A DNA stretch of 64,000 bases. It comes from Candidatus Heimdallarchaeota archaeon. Its GTDB lineage: Archaea; Asgardarchaeota; Heimdallarchaeia; JABLTI01. Made by a program: the position numbers and the translations under genes. The stretch is from NCBI GenBank assembly GCA_019058275.1, contig JAHLVW010000058.1, positions 1-64,000 of the forward strand, in the 5' to 3' direction. Numbering within the stretch: the first letter of the stretch is position 1; every line of letters starts with the position of its first letter. Below, in pieces: positions 25,780-33,537 of this stretch. The notes below the pieces were generated by a model. That model saw only the letters and a program-made list of their open reading frames with translations. It made no database searches and was not told the DNA's origin.

Positions 25780-25989
25780 TGAATTTTCATCCTAAATCAT
25801 TTGTCTAAACACAATTAATGATGGTATAATCTACTATCTTTTCTCTCTCAGAAAAAGCTTAAAAAGTTCTAAATAATGATTTATAATTTTTACAAACATT
25901 ATGAAATGGTTTAAAATGTTAATAAGCAATATTACAAACGTGATTTCCTTATCCCGGAATGTATTTTCTTGGCTTCTGGTGACAAATTG

Positions 25990-27777
25990 ATGACTGAAAA
26001 CAACAACAATGATGATAAACCAAATGAACAAACAAGTGAGGATACAAGAGATAGTCAGATTTGTTCAAATTGTGGAGAGAAGAATCCGATAAATAATCTC
26101 TTTTGCAATTATTGTGGTCATCATTTCGTAGAAAAAGTAAAATGTAGAAGATGCGATCGAGAAATTCCTGTTTATAATACATTTTGTGGTTACTGTGGAG
26201 CACCAATGAGAGCTACACAACAGACCACTCGAACTACAACTGAAACACCGCATCAAGGATTCATTCAGCAACAGCAACCAATTCAGAGGAGCTACTATGA
26301 TACTCCTTCTATGTCACGACTACCTCCAGAAGTAGAAGCAAGATTAATAGAGCAGCAACGTTTAGCAAAACTTGAATCAAGAAATACATTAGCTAAAATT
26401 TTCGGTATAATATTTCTTATTATTGGAATTGGTGTTTTAATTAACTACATAACTTCAATTTTCATTTATAGTACTGAATATTTCGAACAAATAATTGCTG
26501 ATTATGGTTACGAAGAAGTAAGTGATGGTTTGCTTTATGGAATGCTAACCGCTTTAAATCTACCAGCTATTGTAATCTTCTTTGGTGCAGGTGCTTCACT
26601 TATATGGTACAAACCAGAAGGAAACTATTGGAAAGGCATGTATCAAACTTTAAGGTTTATTTTTGTTGGCTTTTCGATGGTTTTAGCTTTGATTTCAATA
26701 ATATCTACAATTACTTGGTTATTTTATAATCCTAGTGTTCAAATTACTGGATACGAAAGCTTCTGGTTATTCTATATTATCAGAATTCCAGTAGACATGA
26801 AGATTTCAAATCTTTATATAGCACTATTGTCTGTTTATCTATTCTGTATATTTATATTGATTCTACCTCCAATCATAAAGAGTGTTAAAGAGAGAACTTC
26901 TCAAAGTAGCGATAAAGAAGTTACCAAATATAAGACAGAAGAAGCTAATGAAATCGAAGAAACAAAACCCGAAAACCCAGATTTAGAATTAAAAAGTAAA
27001 ACTGAGACAATAAGCCGTTTAGAAGCTAAAAAAGGCAGGATGCCAGCTATTTTCTACACTATAAAGAATACTCCTCTAATAAAAACAATGGAACTGTTAG
27101 GACTTTCAATGATAGTATCAATAATTCTGATTTTCATATTATCTCCTTTTATCAATGAAGAAACTACTGTTGAACTAGAAGATCCATTTATCACTGTAAT
27201 AGCTGTTTTTTGGGCAGGAATTTTTGAAGAAATAAGTTTTCGACTAATTTTAATCGGAGTTCCTATGATTATTGTTGTAATCGTTAGATACAATTTGCAG
27301 AACAAACAAACTAGGGAGAAAATAGAGAACAGTTTTGGTAAATTGCCAAAAAGTCAACCTAAACTTACAATTATAGATGTAGTGCTTTCATTTAGAGGAA
27401 AATATAAGATCATAGGTTATCCTGAATGGATACTAGTTGGGATATCTTCATTGCTATTTGGATTTGCACATTGGAGCAAGTGGACTGGTGGATGGGGTGC
27501 ATGGAAAATAGTTCAAGCAGCAGTTGCTGGTTTCTTTTTAAGCTATGCATTTGTAAAGTATGGACTTACATCTGCAATATTCATCCATGTAACAAATAAT
27601 GTTATTTCAGCTCTTTCAATTTTTAGCGCAGAAATCGATAATGCTGAATTCCTTGCTGGTTTTACAATGTTCCTGACAATGATACTATTGTTATTAGGAT
27701 TAATGAAAGCAGTAAGCATAATAATCAATTTAGTCTACAAGCAATTTGTCTTGAAAAAATCTGGGATTTCAAGATAA
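25990..27777 (+). CDS. Double-zinc-ribbon CPBP (Rce1/Abi-like) intramembrane glutamic endopeptidase
   Basis: Four CxxC pairs at the N-terminus; CPBP motifs EEISFR, FGFAH and AIFIHVTNN. ATG at 25990 follows GGTGA. Confidence 0.85.
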   Translation: MTENNNNDDKPNEQTSEDTRDSQICSNCGEKNPINNLFCNYCGHHFVEKVKCRRCDREIPVYNTFCGYCGAPMRATQQTTRTTTETPHQGFIQQQQPIQRSYYDTPSMSRLPPEVEARLIEQQRLAKLESRNTLAKIFGIIFLIIGIGVLINYITSIFIYSTEYFEQIIADYGYEEVSDGLLYGMLTALNLPAIVIFFGAGASLIWYKPEGNYWKGMYQTLRFIFVGFSMVLALISIISTITWLFYNPSVQITGYESFWLFYIIRIPVDMKISNLYIALLSVYLFCIFILILPPIIKSVKERTSQSSDKEVTKYKTEEANEIEETKPENPDLELKSKTETISRLEAKKGRMPAIFYTIKNTPLIKTMELLGLSMIVSIILIFILSPFINEETTVELEDPFITVIAVFWAGIFEEISFRLILIGVPMIIVVIVRYNLQNKQTREKIENSFGKLPKSQPKLTIIDVVLSFRGKYKIIGYPEWILVGISSLLFGFAHWSKWTGGWGAWKIVQAAVAGFFLSYAFVKYGLTSAIFIHVTNNVISALSIFSAEIDNAEFLAGFTMFLTMILLLLGLMKAVSIIINLVYKQFVLKKSGISR

Positions 27778-27857: not shown

Positions 27858-28361
27858 ATGAATAATGATAAATCAAAAGAGAAGCAAATTGTACACGTTA
27901 TAGGAATAGGTAACCTTACTCGTTTAGATGATGGTGTTGCTATTAGAGTGGTGCATGAGCTTGAAAAGATAGAATTTCCTTCTGGTGTAAAAATTACTGA
28001 TTTAGGTACTGGCGGTGTAGACATAGCTCTAATCTTTGATGGATGGTCATATGGAATAATAATTGATGCAGTTGATATTGAAGGGTTAACACCGGGAGAA
28101 GTTGTAGAGTTCAAAATAACAGAAAATAATTTACCTGATGTAAAAGGACTAAGTTCTAGTCATGGTTTCGATGCCTTAATAGCACTAAAACTTGCTTATG
28201 TGGTTTCAGAATTTAACCTTCCAAGGGAAATTGTTATACTAGGAATCCAGATAGAACAAATGGCTGGTTTTGGAATTAAACTATCATCATCTGTTGAAAA
28301 AGCAATACCTATTGTTATAGAAAGAGTTGATGAACTTATTGAATTATATCTTCAAAAATAA
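27858..28361 (+). CDS. Hydrogenase maturation protease (HycI/HybD family)
   Basis: VIGIGNLTRLDDGVA, IIIDAVD...PG, SSHG. Confidence 0.88.
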   Translation: MNNDKSKEKQIVHVIGIGNLTRLDDGVAIRVVHELEKIEFPSGVKITDLGTGGVDIALIFDGWSYGIIIDAVDIEGLTPGEVVEFKITENNLPDVKGLSSSHGFDALIALKLAYVVSEFNLPREIVILGIQIEQMAGFGIKLSSSVEKAIPIVIERVDELIELYLQK

Positions 28362-28889
28362 TTAATCGAATTTAGAAATTTTGTCTAAAGATAATCGAGC
28401 AATTTCATTGAAAACTAACTCAACTCCTAAACCATTCGCAGAAGAAGTCTCAATATATCTGATAGCATTGTATTTCTTTATTGTATCCTCAACAATATCA
28501 TCTGCAATTAGTGTATCTCTCGGTAAATCGCTTTTTCCACCAACTAAGATTATTTCAGTTTTTGTATTTTTATCAACAAAACCATACCAAGTATCTAAAC
28601 CACCAATAGATAAGGCTCGAGTTAAATCAAACATTAAAACAGCAACAAGTGCTCCTCTAAAATAATTATCGAAAATACCCATTTGTTTGAATTGTTCTTG
28701 CCCACCACAATCCCAAACGCTTAAAGAAATGTCTCTTCCTTGATGACTCATCTGATGTATGTGAAAACCAACACCAATTGTGAGTTTTGTTGTATCGATA
28801 AATTCTCCTGTTAGATAACGTTGAATCAGTGTAGTTTTTCCAACACCACCATCTCCACCAAACACAACTTTAGCTATTATTTTCGACAT
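28362..28889 (-). CDS. Rab/Ras-like small GTPase (175 aa)
   Basis: G1 GDGGVGKT, G2 LTIGVGF, G3 WDCGGQE, YFRGA, G4 GGKSD, G5 ETSS. ATG at 28889 follows GGTGG. No C-terminal Cys/CAAX. Confidence 0.92.
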   Translation of the reverse strand: MSKIIAKVVFGGDGGVGKTTLIQRYLTGEFIDTTKLTIGVGFHIHQMSHQGRDISLSVWDCGGQEQFKQMGIFDNYFRGALVAVLMFDLTRALSIGGLDTWYGFVDKNTKTEIILVGGKSDLPRDTLIADDIVEDTIKKYNAIRYIETSSANGLGVELVFNEIARLSLDKISKFD

Positions 28890-29034
28890 TGATGCGTCCC
28901 ACCAAAGTAATTTATCAACATATATTTTGTAATAACAAATCAATAGTGCAATATTATTTAATATAAAGCTATTCGTTTTAACAAATAGCTTTTCAAAAAG
29001 CTTCAAAATAATAAAAAAATAAAGAGGAGATTGA

Positions 29035-29838
29035 CTAATGTATCTTTTCAATGGAAACATTAAGTCTATCAAGAATTTTGGACATTTCATTAATTTCAGT
29101 AACTGAAACAACTTTGAGTCTGTTTTTGAAAACACTAGAATTTAATTCTGATGCACTTTTATAGATCTGTCTTCTTCTCCAAACAGAAGGATCTGGATGA
29201 TAAAAAAGAATTGATAAAGTATTTTTGCTTTTATCAGCAACATAGAAGACATCTGTTGCTGGGATTTTCTTGCCAATTAATTCTTTTGGTGAGCCATCTT
29301 CAAGGATTGTGAAAATTCTTGGTAGTTTGCCTGAGAATAATAATCCCATTTTCTTAGAAAGCTCTTGAAGATTAGCGTGTGTTAAATCTCTTTCAGAAGT
29401 TATATCCCTAACGATAACAGAGAAGTATGGCTTAATTAAACCATAAGCATCTAAGATTTCTCGAGTATAATCTTCGTTAAACAATAAGAAGAGAATGCAT
29501 TTTCGACCAAATTCCATTATGCGTTGGTCTTCAGATGCCTCAGCTTCAACATCGAAAGTAATTGCCATTGCACGTAAATTACTAGCATCTGGAACAGGTA
29601 AGGGACCAAATGATCTTTTATCATCCATTGTGTCAAAGATTTGTGCTTTTTTCTCTTTCATTGTTTTGTTTGAAGCCCCTTCATCTAAACCTACAATTGT
29701 CATTCCTTCTACAGCTAACGTAAGAGTTTGCTCTTCTTTAAGATCTGTATCATTATAAATGACTGAAGGTCCAGTATCTTCAAATGTTACAAAGACAATT
29801 CCCAGTAAGTGTTCTTTTTTCGATTCCAATCCAGACAT
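29035..29838 (-). CDS. Putative uDENN/longin-domain plus gelsolin-like domain fusion protein
   Basis: N-terminal GIVFVTFEDTGPSVIY (uDENN F..GP hairpin), FGPLPVP and DQR...GRKCILF. C-terminal RIF...DVFYVAD...S..RR....ASELN...V..V.E matches the gelsolin-repeat pattern. Confidence 0.6.
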   Translation of the reverse strand: MSGLESKKEHLLGIVFVTFEDTGPSVIYNDTDLKEEQTLTLAVEGMTIVGLDEGASNKTMKEKKAQIFDTMDDKRSFGPLPVPDASNLRAMAITFDVEAEASEDQRIMEFGRKCILFLLFNEDYTREILDAYGLIKPYFSVIVRDITSERDLTHANLQELSKKMGLLFSGKLPRIFTILEDGSPKELIGKKIPATDVFYVADKSKNTLSILFYHPDPSVWRRRQIYKSASELNSSVFKNRLKVVSVTEINEMSKILDRLNVSIEKIH

Positions 29839-30009
29839 TTGATATCAACCTTTTTAGGATTTTTTAGTTATATTCTTTAAATGATTTTTAAAGTGCAACG
29901 GATTATGTTATGAAATTATACTTTTGAATTTATAAATCTGTTTTTCTCTGATTTTTTCTGTAAAGTTTTTATTTTTCTGTTAACTTGATGCTAATTTCTA
30001 AATAAATGC

Positions 30010-30975
30010 TTAAATGGGTATGCCATCATCTTTATTTTTGCTTACTTCGATGAGATTTTCTATAGCAATTCTGCCATTTTCTCCTTCCTCTATGAAGATA
30101 TCTAATACCATTTCTGCGATTTGCTTTGCTTTACCTAGAGCACCACCACGTTCTACAAACAAGCAGCATATTTTTTGCATTCTTGATACCAGAACCATTG
30201 AATAGTCACCTACAGTTACAACATCAAGAAAACTTGAATCCTTAAATAGAGTTCTAGTCATGGAATTTAACGCTGAAAGCAAACCAGTGATTAAAACAGC
30301 ATCCTGTTCTCTATCTGTAACATTCGAAAATTGAGCATCAAAATCAAGCAAACCATTGACATCGTAAATTAACGCTCTGTGAACTGTAACAGTTTCATGA
30401 TATCCTTCATAGGCCATTAGTTTGGAAACAAACCAATCAAAAGCACGATAGATGCCTTCACCTGAAATTATAGTACAAATTTCAAAATGGAAAGATCTCG
30501 GTTCAGTTGGTGATGAGATTCTTGTTAAATCAAAATAGTTCATAACTTCACTAAGATTGATTTTTCGTTCAGGATCTCTTTTATTGATCATAACTAAAAG
30601 AGGAACGTTTGAAGGTAATTGATCAACAATAGTATGGAAAGGTTCTATGGATTTTTGTAAACTTTCTTCTGATTCTCCATTAATAGTGTAAACAATTCCA
30701 TCTGTAATGGACAAGAAATATTCTACAATCTTTTCATCATTTAGAATATCCTTGCCAAGATCGATAAGTTTGAACCATTCTGTACCGTAAGAGATATCAA
30801 CCCAATTCATAACAGTGTCAGGATAGACTTTATCACGACTAGAAGAAAGCAAATGATAAAGCAAAGTAGTCTTACCAGAACTCTTTTCACCCATCAGTAA
30901 AACCCAAGGAATAGTGTGATCTTTCTTTTGCAAATAAGTTGAAAATGCTTCGATTGCTTTGCGTGAACCTTTCAT
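30010..30975 (-). CDS. Degenerate Arf-like GTPase fused to a C-terminal longin/roadblock-like domain
   Basis: G1 GEKSSGKTT, altered G3 IDLGKD, G4 NKRD, GEGIYRAFDWF; C-domain ALIYDVNGL...DAVLITGLLSAL...VTVGDYSMVLV. Confidence 0.75.
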   Translation of the reverse strand: MKGSRKAIEAFSTYLQKKDHTIPWVLLMGEKSSGKTTLLYHLLSSSRDKVYPDTVMNWVDISYGTEWFKLIDLGKDILNDEKIVEYFLSITDGIVYTINGESEESLQKSIEPFHTIVDQLPSNVPLLVMINKRDPERKINLSEVMNYFDLTRISSPTEPRSFHFEICTIISGEGIYRAFDWFVSKLMAYEGYHETVTVHRALIYDVNGLLDFDAQFSNVTDREQDAVLITGLLSALNSMTRTLFKDSSFLDVVTVGDYSMVLVSRMQKICCLFVERGGALGKAKQIAEMVLDIFIEEGENGRIAIENLIEVSKNKDDGIPI

Positions 30976-31111
30976 AATTTCTTCTCCCTTAACAGAAGAT
31001 TATCCTTAACGTTGCAATTTTTTTATGATAATTATTTGTAAGTATTAAATATATGATTATCGGTCTGTAATAAACTGGGAAAAGAAGAATAAAAAGAAGG
31101 AAAAAGAGAAT

Positions 31112-32074
31112 TTAAGAGATAGCATCAAGCGGGAAGTAATTTGAGATTACTTTTTCTAATGAAACAGAGAGACCTTTAAGGTAATCCATCTCAATTGCTT
31201 CAAAGATACGACTTGCTATTGTGAGAACTCTACTGACAGGATCATTGACATCAATCAAAATACCCATCACAAAAAGCTTATTCTTAATGATAACAAGCTG
31301 GTAATGTCCCATAATTTCCAAAACAGTGACAGCTTCGTTGTAATCTCTCATCTGTTTTGCAAATCGTTCTGTTTCTTTAATTGATTCCCGATATGCAGTA
31401 GCTACATCTGCTTGCTGAGTCGGGCTACCAAAGATGGCTTGATCAAGTTCTTTACCATTAGAATCAAAAACAACAGCTGAGAAAATCTTAACATGCCAAG
31501 TAGGGATAGCTTTATCTTTAGAGACAATATTAACTAACCAATCCCAAGCAGGGAATAATCCCTCGCCAGATAAGGCAGAGCACCTGAACATATTGAAAGC
31601 ACGATCTTGGCGAGTCATTTTTTGTAATTCAAGGGTTTCCATAACTTCAACAGTTGAAGCAGCTTCTTCTTTATCAGATTTGTTGACCAAGAAAAGAATG
31701 GGAGCACTCTGATCAGTATTTTCTAAAGATTCGTAAAAGACGTCTTTAGCCAATTGAAAGCGCTTCTTATCAGCAGCATCAATGACAAAGACAATAACTT
31801 GAGCTTTAGTAATAAATTTCTTCCACAAAGTCTTACGAATTGGTGCATGACCACCAAGATCCCAAACAACGAATTCTAAAGTACGATAACGATAAAGTTC
31901 AATATTAACGCCAAAAGTTGGCTTGGAAAGGGTGTACTCAGAACGTAAAATTCTTTTCATGATTGTTGTCTTCCCCGCTGCATCCAGTCCTATTATCGCT
32001 ACATGTTGTTTTACTGGTCTTCCATCTGCCCCTTTTCTTTTGTCTGCGCTGATTAATCTTCTTAGGAAACTCAA
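31112..32074 (-). CDS. Arf/Sar1-like GTPase with N-terminal amphipathic helix and C-terminal longin/roadblock-like domain
   Basis: MSFLRRLI N-helix, G1 GLDAAGKTT, G2 PTFG, G3 WDLGGH, FVIDAAD, G4 NKSD, G5 CSA, GEGL...WDWL; C-domain AVVFDSNGK...LEIMGHYQLVIIK. Confidence 0.88.
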   Translation of the reverse strand: MSFLRRLISADKRKGADGRPVKQHVAIIGLDAAGKTTIMKRILRSEYTLSKPTFGVNIELYRYRTLEFVVWDLGGHAPIRKTLWKKFITKAQVIVFVIDAADKKRFQLAKDVFYESLENTDQSAPILFLVNKSDKEEAASTVEVMETLELQKMTRQDRAFNMFRCSALSGEGLFPAWDWLVNIVSKDKAIPTWHVKIFSAVVFDSNGKELDQAIFGSPTQQADVATAYRESIKETERFAKQMRDYNEAVTVLEIMGHYQLVIIKNKLFVMGILIDVNDPVSRVLTIASRIFEAIEMDYLKGLSVSLEKVISNYFPLDAIS

Positions 32075-32412: not shown

Positions 32413-33537
32413 TTATTGATTATAAGCTTCATTGAATTGTTCTTTCACTGATTCTGCTATACTCTCAGGAGTTGCAGCTGCGATTGGTTCAAAATGTAAA
32501 AGTTCCATGAATCCAATATCTCCTGTATAATTTGGCATAAGGTTTGGTCTTGTGACAATTCTTAAGTTAATTCGAAATGAATCATAATGATCTTCATTTA
32601 TTGGTCCTATATACATAGCCACATTCACTGATGTTGCTCCTCTTCCAATGTAAAGAGCTTTTAGTGCCTGTGAAATGCCCTTTGCCAATTCTGTACTTTC
32701 TTCTTTTGTAAATACAGATATATCTGTTTTTGGAATTTTAACAATGCCAGTTAGTTCATTTTTCCCTAAAGGTGAGTAAGTTGCTATCCAAGCCATAAAG
32801 TTATTTTCAGTAATAAACCGTTCATTGATTTCCTTTTCAGCTTCAATAAGATCTAACCAATAATTTGAACCATTTTTTGCATATTGTTTACTTCTACCCA
32901 TTAGAATTTCGGTGTATTTTGTTGGTTTAACATCTTGAATAATTTGAATATGTGGATGTATTATTGATGACGCGGATGGTGGGAGATAATTGAAATTGAT
33001 TGACGGATATTTTACAGATTTATCAAATTTATTCACAGCTTTAAAATATTTAATTGAACCTGCTATTGCATCTTGCCAAATTTCAGGTGTAAAATCTTGC
33101 AATGGGGTAAAATGCTTATCTCCTAAAGTACCTACCGCATGGTATTGTGAAAAAACAAATAAGTTTGGAAATAAAGTGAAAGTTCCTTGTTTTATCCTAT
33201 CACCTAATCCTAATTCTTTGGGAAATCTTGGAGTAGATTTCTCAACATTTTCAGGACAGAAAAAACATTTCTTAGAAGAATTCTCGATAACAGATTGTAG
33301 ATTTTGCTCGTAATTTTCACTAGGCATCGTAGCTTGTTTAACACGATCTGCTCGCAATTTGTTAATTCTTGAGTAATGATTTGTTAAAGGATCTTTTCTG
33401 TACTCGATTTTTTGCTCCACAAGCTTGTAGCTGTCTAAAGGACTATGGATTTTTGCAGAACGAATTACTTTTTCGAATTTAATCTTACCTACTTTAACTT
33501 TTATATTTTCTTCGTTTTTCTTTACTTTTTCTGGCAT
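32413..33537 (-). CDS. galT: Galactose-1-phosphate uridylyltransferase-like (HIT/GalT family)
   Basis: EYRKDPLT, CFFCP, FPNLF and ASSSIIHPHIQ (HxHxQ) motifs. Confidence 0.8.
   Translation of the reverse strand: MPEKVKKNEENIKVKVGKIKFEKVIRSAKIHSPLDSYKLVEQKIEYRKDPLTNHYSRINKLRADRVKQATMPSENYEQNLQSVIENSSKKCFFCPENVEKSTPRFPKELGLGDRIKQGTFTLFPNLFVFSQYHAVGTLGDKHFTPLQDFTPEIWQDAIAGSIKYFKAVNKFDKSVKYPSINFNYLPPSASSIIHPHIQIIQDVKPTKYTEILMGRSKQYAKNGSNYWLDLIEAEKEINERFITENNFMAWIATYSPLGKNELTGIVKIPKTDISVFTKEESTELAKGISQALKALYIGRGATSVNVAMYIGPINEDHYDSFRINLRIVTRPNLMPNYTGDIGFMELLHFEPIAAATPESIAESVKEQFNEAYNQ

Follow-up and report, generated by a model that had tools for sequence, protein, structure and literature searches.

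A longin-gelsolin protein encoded beside an Arf/Sar-type GTPase and its degenerate paralog in Heimdallarchaeia: a candidate GTPase regulator

Which GTPases are served by the longin-domain proteins of Asgard archaea that carry a Gly-Pro (GP) motif, and which proteins regulate the Asgard Arf GTPases? The GP-motif longins have been proposed as relatives of GTPase-activating proteins (GAPs), their GTPase partner being unknown (PMC12290439), and for the Arf GTPases of Asgard archaea the native regulators are likewise unknown (Zhu et al. 2025, PMC11914678). GP-motif longins were described in Heimdallarchaeia by Novak Vanclova et al. (2025; PMC12290439), who asked about ArfR or Rag/Gtr GTPases as partners. 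Both questions are raised by a locus in a stretch of 64,000 nucleotides (the window; positions 1 to 64,000 of contig JAHLVW010000058.1, assembly GCA_019058275.1) from a Candidatus Heimdallarchaeota archaeon. Here four consecutive minus-strand genes, designated A to D, lie in the same orientation between positions 28362 and 32074, an arrangement that was given in a preliminary description of this DNA and that the open reading frame (ORF) coordinates confirm:

31112-32074, minus strand: gene A, a 320-amino-acid (aa) GTPase of Arf/Sar type whose C-terminal alpha/beta domain gives it an apparently Rag-like architecture; TTG start
30010-30975, minus strand: gene B, a 321-aa full-length paralog that repeats A's two domains but has a degenerate switch II
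29035-29838, minus strand: gene C, a 267-aa protein with a longin and a gelsolin-fold domain, the candidate regulator
28362-28889, minus strand: gene D, a 175-aa Ras/Rab-like GTPase with GGKSD for NKxD and without a C-terminal Cys

We interpret A, B, and C as one conserved module comprising a working switch (A), a dead switch (B), and a dedicated longin regulator that is likely a GAP (C), an interpretation to which we assign an even chance. The genes A to D and those flanking them are collinear throughout the window's genus, and A-B-C are adjacent in 11 of the 12 genomes of its family, the remaining one being cut by contig ends. By coordinates, C also adjoins B in 27 of 29 genomes of the Heimdallarchaeaceae (contig ends interrupt the other two), a set that adds four further genera and takes in Ca. 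Heimdallarchaeum aukensis and endolithica, both with closed genomes. Orthologs in that family share approximately 38% (A), 28% (B), and 39% (C) identity with the window's proteins. Because A, B, and C are separated there by gaps of 0-10 bp or overlap by 4 bp, they form an operon in Heimdallarchaeaceae. When a profile built from the A/B C-terminal domain was run over 301 Asgard genomes, the tandem pair was recovered in 10/10 genomes of the window's family and 29/29 Heimdallarchaeaceae; elsewhere the profile gave one weak match per genome in a third family and almost none in the other 240 Asgard genomes. The C-family tree unites the linked copies of both families and an unlinked paralog of the window's family in one clade (97/95 support). 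A-B-C are thus the conserved core of the locus, and D is a neighbor only within the genus. The earlier reading of the locus as a four-gene cluster stands for the gene order and domains of A-B-C, whose synteny extends over two families, and falls short for D, which is absent from the Heimdallarchaeaceae operon and syntenic only within the genus.

The second line of evidence comes from a third family, in which a full-length longin-gelsolin paralog lies inside a tight four-gene operon in 5/5 genomes fetched:

L041:3887-7673 and L046:4709-8550, also L043, L044, and L047: third-family operon

Gene 1 of this operon encodes a Gtr1/RagA-type GTPase (~5e-36) with DLGGQ and HKTD, and gene 2 a degenerate Rag-like protein with P-loop GKD and NRGH and no DxxG; gene 3 is the C-family member, and gene 4 encodes a second Gtr1/RagA-type GTPase, of 309 aa. 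The Rag-type genes score 109-125 bits against Pfam Gtr1_RagA and carry HKTD. The order GTPase, pseudo-GTPase, longin-gelsolin protein, GTPase mirrors A-B-C-D. In another assembly, operon genes 3 and 4 are naturally fused into a single 597-aa protein (P0095, L040:4001-5794, alone on its contig), which is 36% identical to gene 3 over the whole gene-3 length (2e-55) and 40% identical to gene 4 (6e-81). A further protein, P0177, joins the same type of longin to an Arf domain. This recurrent linkage in two paralogous systems, together with the fusion, is the strongest evidence that longin-gelsolin proteins and GTPases may work together directly.

Within the window's own 4.12-Mb genome, the clustering of GTPase genes around C exceeds chance, because three of the 27 small-GTPase-like ORFs lie within 1.3 kb of gene C and none lies within 5 kb of any of the other six C-family ORFs.

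Gene A encodes two domains preceded by a short helix, as follows:

32039-32074, minus strand: A residues 1-12, a short basic amphipathic helix in which MSF..R..I is invariant
31514-32011, minus strand: A G domain, residues 22-187, with GLDAAGKT, PTFGVNIE, WDLGGH, NKSD, and SAL
31130-31492, minus strand: A C-terminal domain, residues 195-315, predicted by AlphaFold2 (AF2) as beta-beta-alpha-beta-beta-beta-alpha-alpha (these elements spanning residues 197-313), a putative roadblock/longin-type platform

The G domain matches Pfam Arf (PF00025) over residues 23-182 with 144.8 bits (2.4e-42; cutoff 22.3), leaving approximately 130 residues beyond the match. A sequence search of the PDB placed Arl1/Arf1 at the top (1e-30), and HodArfR1 matched over residues 3-182 (3.6e-27). 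In the AF2 model of A (predicted local distance difference test score, pLDDT, 75.7), the G domain aligns by VIA-align with Z scores of 20-21.5 to Arf6, Arf1, Arl8, HodArfR1 (20.4), and Sar1, and of 17.2 to LokiRagO. The P-loop, PTxGVNxE, WDLGGH, NKSD, and the SA motif are invariant in 15 orthologs from two families, so that the Arf switch signature PTxGFNVE...WDxGGQ appears in A as PTFGVNIE/WDLGGH, with His replacing Gln. We take the His of DLGGH to be the Sar1 variant of the catalytic Gln. No match to Pfam Gtr1_RagA was found for A at E<=1, and its G4 motif is NKSD, not the HKxD of Rag proteins.

At the N terminus, M1, S2, F3, R5, and I8 are invariant in the same 15 orthologs. AF2 predicts a helix at residues 3-10; this segment of approximately 10 residues is very basic, lacks a Gly2 for myristoylation, and has a hydrophobic moment of 0.55-0.73, the upper value ranking second among the 309 windows of the protein. 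Such a helix may serve in membrane binding. The C-terminal domain gave no sequence match in profile searches of the PDB and Pfam, for A or for B, and a language-model search provided a weak lead to Robl_LC7/LAMTOR3 clusters (score 0.83). LokiRagM (9m28_A) aligns by VIA-align to A residues 22-299, spanning both domains, but with a root-mean-square deviation (rmsd) of 10.3. As modeled, A has a Rag-like architecture with an Arf-like G domain, a combination that Tran et al. (2024, PMC10933270) described in general terms for MK-D1. The Pfam Arf match (2.4e-42), the AF2 model of the C-terminal domain, and the LokiRagM alignment all support the earlier identification of A as an Arf-like GTPase with a roadblock/longin-like domain.

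Gene B, previously described as a degenerate paralog with A's architecture, is indeed 24% identical to A across both domains (BLASTP 2e-22), matches Pfam Arf with 65 bits (7.9e-18), and lacks DxxG. Its score against Pfam Gtr1_RagA is 20.5 bits, under the cutoff of 22, and its G4 motif is NKRD, not HKxD. The window's copy retains the P-loop and NKRD and has DLGK in place of A's DLGGH. Across orthologs of both families, GxxxxGK[ST] is retained, as is NKxD in most, and the DxxG site reads DLGK or DIGN in the window's family and EADE in Heimdallarchaeaceae. The reading frame is intact and the motifs are conserved between the two families at ~27-28% identity. Judging from these motifs, B is likely a pseudo-GTPase or hydrolysis-dead. 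Since DxxG is absent from both families, the loss of switch II is old and maintained rather than a recent decay.

Gene C has no match at E<=1 in Pfam or NCBIfam, including Gelsolin, Folliculin, and NPR2. Its AF2 model (pLDDT 78.9) comprises two domains, within which the following features can be placed:

29326-29823, minus strand: C longin domain, residues 6-171, from the AF2 model and fold searches
29767-29772, minus strand: GP motif, G23-P24, at the start of longin strand 2 (model strand 23-29)
29521-29529, minus strand: D104-x-R106, on the loop that joins strands 4 and 5 of the AF2 model, R106 being a candidate arginine finger
29038-29325, minus strand: C gelsolin-fold domain, residues 172-267, from VIA-align fold matches

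The top VIA-align match of the longin domain is the Loki Roadblock-Longin protein 8yqg_B (Z 13.3). Structures of the GAP class include 7o2w_A (C9orf72-SMCR8 complex; Z 11.3), Lst4 (11.0), 6nzd_H (folliculin complex; 10.3), and 8fw5_B (GATOR1; 9.3), whereas the longins of adaptin sigma, VAMP7, and TRAPP score lower (Z ~7-8). In the ESM Atlas, C resembles a C9orf72 cluster (TM 0.51) and Heimdall clusters that in part bear Pfam Folliculin or NPR2; further clusters contain Asgard longin-GTPase fusions, DENND11, NPRL3, and Avl9. The GP motif has been reported for FLCN, NPRL2, SMCR8, C9orf72, and a class of Asgard longins, and not for non-GAP longins (PMC12290439). In C it closes the "F..GP" hairpin FEDTGP (residues 18-24), at the junction of loop and strand 2 by which that study defines it. 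Among 19 homologs, G23, P24, D104, and R106 never vary, and across a set of 69 each is conserved in 90% or more; R112, which like R106 is near the strand 4/5 loop, is nearly invariant. R106 may be the equivalent of FLCN R164, NPRL2 R78, or SMCR8 R147. By the fold of its model and its GP motif, the predicted C longin belongs to the folliculin/C9orf72/NPRL2/SMCR8 class. The earlier label "uDENN" holds in the sense of an FLCN/C9orf72/DENN-class longin with a FEDTGP hairpin and fails in that no central or downstream DENN domain is present in C. A derivation of the C longin as a copy of A's C-terminal domain was ruled out, no similarity being found by BLASTP of C against A.

The remainder of C aligns to Thorarchaeota ProGel over 86/88 residues (Z 9.6, rmsd 2.7), to adseverin (Z 8.7), gelsolin (8.0), and Heimdall 2DGel (7.6), and also to villin and fragmin; residues 171-261 match the gelsolin-like domain of Sec23a at Z 6.8. 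Residues 172-267 have no match to Pfam Gelsolin at E<=1, so membership by sequence is not established. At the level of fold, the gelsolin-like identification made previously agrees with the ProGel match, and fold searching by VIA-align returned both the longin and the gelsolin folds for C.

The C family is small, with 165 clusters at 50% identity among 1.84 billion representative proteins. The window's own genome holds a paralog 45% identical to C (C41:10892-11656), found genus-wide beside a DUF389 membrane protein and without a GTPase neighbor. Another C-family paralog (C54:82142-82922, minus strand) occupies two overlapping frames, 82455-82922 and 82142-82522, and may be frameshifted or decaying. 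The best C homologs of other families have no A/B-like neighbors; the adjacent genes encode Fe-ADH, GCD14, JAB, MCP, and DUF389 proteins.

Gene D spans 28362-29135 in the ORF list, but because all orthologs begin with MSKIIAKVV we assign it to 28362-28889. It matches Pfam Ras with 117.8 bits (4.5e-34) and Roc with 81.3 bits, which upholds a Ras/Rab-like G domain for what had been called a Rab-like GTPase; Asgard "Rab-like" proteins have been classed as RasL, not as true Rabs (bioRxiv 10.1101/2024.02.28.582541). Both the canonical NKxD and a C-terminal Cys prenylation motif are absent from D. GGKSD is invariant in 6/6 orthologs (the window's and those of L013, L014, L029, L031, and L032), which hints at an altered nucleotide specificity or affinity. 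D adjoins C in all genomes of the window's genus examined and is missing from the Heimdallarchaeaceae operon, where the gene 3' of C encodes an NYN-domain protein or is one of various other genes. D may be a second client of the module.

Among the surrounding genes, a plus-strand gene two genes away from the GTPase cluster (25969-27777), syntenic within the genus, encodes a 602-aa protein that carries double zinc ribbons at its N terminus together with an Rce1-like CAAX-protease (CPBP) domain; a CAAX box is found at the C terminus of 0/4 of the A-D proteins. The immediate flanks, a plus-strand HycI-type hydrogenase maturation protease gene (27858-28361) and a minus-strand gene for a 374-aa protein that has an HPHIQ motif but matches nothing in Pfam (32413-33537), are apparently unrelated to the module.

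We propose the following mechanism for the A-B-C module. A would be the hydrolysing switch, with its Arf/Sar G domain, Sar1-like catalytic His, N-terminal amphipathic helix, and roadblock-like C-terminal domain. By analogy with Rag/Gtr GTPases, and from their paralogy and conserved adjacency, A and B would dimerize by way of their C-terminal domains, B being the locked or structural subunit. The C longin would dock on the G domain of A and act as a GAP by way of R106 at A's active site, whereas the gelsolin-fold domain could speculatively provide a second GTPase contact or recruit a further partner, for instance actin. D would be a Ras-like GTPase added beside the module in the window's genus. 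A GAP is the most likely role for C because it combines a predicted longin of the FLCN/NPRL2/SMCR8/C9orf72 class with the GP motif and an invariant Asp-x-Arg loop.

Several points limit this proposal or weigh against it. Direct binding of C to the GTPases, dimerization, and the direction of regulation are inferred; observed directly are what each domain is, that A and B are paralogs, and the conservation of motifs and gene order, along with the Rag-type operon and the fusion. A complex prediction for A + B + C, run with each chain's own alignment and with no controls, scored 0.00 and speaks neither for nor against binding. The fold of the A/B C-terminal domain comes from a single AF2 model and has no sequence match behind it, and the tie of R106 to known arginine fingers is a tentative one. 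Eukaryotic longin GAPs are two-longin heterodimers whose longins are followed by DENN domains, and C has neither a DENN domain nor a second longin gene in its operon. Longin and roadblock domains mostly serve as GEFs (guanine-nucleotide exchange factors) or platforms (PMC3747258; PMC12290439). Other C-family paralogs, including the 45%-identical copy in the same genome, have no GTPase neighbor. Because P0095 fuses its C-family protein to the downstream GTPase and not to the upstream pair, the true client of a C-family protein could occupy position 4. Finally, genes A to D need not share one transcript in the window's genome, since the intergenic spacers of 136, 171, and 145 nt (A/B, B/C, and C/D) are AT-rich, with a T-tract 3' of A and TATA-like boxes ahead of B, C, and D when the intergenic DNA is read by eye; the gaps of 136-171 bp with T-rich tracts noted in the preliminary description are thereby confirmed. 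A scan for sigma-70 promoters and intrinsic terminators, which is inapplicable to archaea, found no more of them than in shuffled sequences.

The same general behavior of longins opens the principal alternative, in which C works as a GEF or scaffold and its longin serves to load or anchor A/B in the manner of Ragulator, Mon1-Ccz1, TRAPP, or DENN proteins. The longins of DENND10/11, Mon1-Ccz1, and TRAPP are among its structural matches (Z ~7-8), and the synteny and fusion data would fit such a role equally well, yet we regard it as unlikely: the GAP-class longins 7o2w_A, Lst4, 6nzd_H, and 8fw5_B match better (Z 9.3-11.3), and C bears both the GP motif, reported as specific to GAP longins (PMC12290439), and an invariant Arg. 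The gelsolin-fold domain suggests a different role, in which C is an effector or adaptor that binds actin and the A/B switch steers actin dynamics or a membrane-cytoskeleton tie. Its fold matches those of the actin-binding Asgard gelsolins ProGel (Z 9.6) and Heimdall 2DGel (Z 7.6), and co-immunoprecipitates of Lokiactin from Lokiarchaeum ossiferum were enriched for an ARF GTPase and for five gelsolin homologues (PMC13716822). The absence of a Pfam Gelsolin sequence match, the fact that non-actin-binding proteins such as Sec23/24 (Z 6.8) also have the fold, and the lack of an actin gene in the neighborhood make this improbable in our estimation.

Two further accounts differ in how much of the locus they bind together. 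In one, the cascade proposed in the preliminary description, all four genes belong to one pathway, with an A/B dimer, the regulator C, and a downstream GTPase D on which C would act besides, or instead of, A; D adjoins C across the genus, the third-family operon has a GTPase at position 4, and P0095 joins a longin-gelsolin protein to that very GTPase. Against this, D is replaced by an NYN-domain gene or others in Heimdallarchaeaceae, it is a plain Ras-family protein, whereas the third-family gene at position 4 is Rag-type with a C-terminal domain, and a 145-nt spacer with its own TATA-like box precedes it, so that we think there is little chance that this account is correct. In the other, the genes are mere neighbors, namely a GTPase duplicated in tandem, one copy of which is decaying, and genes unrelated to it, all without a common function. 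Although the window's intergenic gaps contain terminator-like T-tracts, and small-GTPase genes of MK-D1 are generally not found in operons with regulators (PMC10933270), B is intact with conserved motifs across two families at 27% identity, Heimdallarchaeaceae keep the A-B-C order with stop codons that overlap the next start, and a paralogous operon and a natural fusion exist; we consider simple neighborhood very improbable.

Much of what A-B-C contain is already known separately: Asgard Rag-like GTPase-roadblock pairs (PMC10933270), GP-motif longins (PMC12290439), gelsolins, and Arf GTPases. In the searchable literature we found no description of the longin-gelsolin architecture or of its operon with an active and a pseudo Arf-type pair, nor of the Rag-type sister operon or a longin-gelsolin/GTPase fusion. 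Gene context gives an answer to the question of partners, in that the GP-motif longin has as its operon partners an Arf-type pair in one lineage and, in another, a Rag-type set, and in one genome the link between longin and GTPase is an outright fusion. The locus thereby names a concrete candidate regulator for a eukaryote-like switch in the archaea closest to eukaryotes, and supplies defined protein pairs, some of them from the closed Ca. Heimdallarchaeum genomes. Tentatively, and with more doubt than confidence, A-B-C may be viewed as an archaeal forerunner of the eukaryotic pairing of dimeric GTPases with longin GAPs: an Arf/Sar switch of Rag-like build, with a pseudo-GTPase subunit, turned off by C. 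In this forerunner, C would unite a GP/Arg longin (as in SMCR8 and FLCN) with a gelsolin-like domain (as in Sec23), devices that are separate in the eukaryotic Arf-family GAPs, and, since a sister family has a Rag-type version, the design would predate the split between Arf-type and Rag-type clients. If borne out for the protein pairs of this locus, GTPase regulation by C would give the first cognate pair of small GTPase and regulator known from the archaeal relatives of eukaryotes, and the longin-GAP mechanism would date to before eukaryogenesis.

Among known systems, MK-D1 (Promethearchaeum syntrophicum) has an operon-encoded pair of Rag-like GTPase-roadblock proteins predicted to form a Gtr1-Gtr2-like heterodimer (Tran et al. 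2024, PMC10933270). Like A and B, the MK-D1 proteins are paralogs encoded side by side, and in them, as in the solved structures of LokiRagM (9m28) and LokiRagO (8yl2), a small-GTPase domain precedes a roadblock-type C-terminal domain, the arrangement predicted for A and B; many GTPase-roadblock proteins of the MK-D1 type are annotated as Arf by sequence (PMC10933270), and LokiRagM aligns over both domains of A. Unlike the MK-D1 pair, B lacks switch II, the G domains of A and B are assigned to Arf (145 and 65 bits) rather than to Gtr1_RagA, and A has NKSD where Rag proteins have HKxD. A longin-gelsolin protein as the third gene of a conserved unit is a further difference, the MK-D1 GTPases being generally not operonic with longin or roadblock genes (PMC10933270).

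The Asgard ArfR/AArf proteins (Vargova et al., bioRxiv 10.1101/2024.02.28.582541; Zhu et al. 2025, PMC11914678) share with A an Arf-type G domain and an N-terminal helix, which in HodArfR1 and GerdArfR1 is needed for membrane binding; these proteins are ~180-190 residues long in their solved structures, to which A and B add a C-terminal domain of 130 residues. Like C, the Asgard gelsolins ProGel and 2DGel (7c2f, 7whf) have a single gelsolin-homology fold of ~90 residues (Z 7.6-9.6), whereas in C this fold is fused behind a longin and carries no Pfam Gelsolin signal. Sec23, the GAP of Sar1 in COPII, acts on a client with the Sar1-type DLGGH seen in A and uses a gelsolin-like domain to supply its catalytic residue (PMC11914678). 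C differs in having no trunk, zinc-finger, barrel, or helical domains, its match to Sec23a is weaker than those to actin-binding gelsolins, and its gelsolin-fold domain has no identified counterpart of the Sec23 arginine.

A further comparison is with the eukaryotic longin GAPs, namely FLCN-FNIP for RagC/D, the NPRL2-NPRL3 pair of GATOR1 for RagA/B, and C9orf72-SMCR8-WDR41 for Arf1, which have the same longin fold as C. C stands apart from them in having a gelsolin-fold domain in the place of DENN and a single longin with no second longin subunit alongside. A GP motif ahead of strand 2 is common to C, the eukaryotic longin GAPs, and the Asgard longins of FLCN/SMCR8 type (PMC12290439), C may also share with them a conserved Arg nearby, and the clients of the eukaryotic longin GAPs are Rag- or Arf-type GTPases, as are those encoded beside C.

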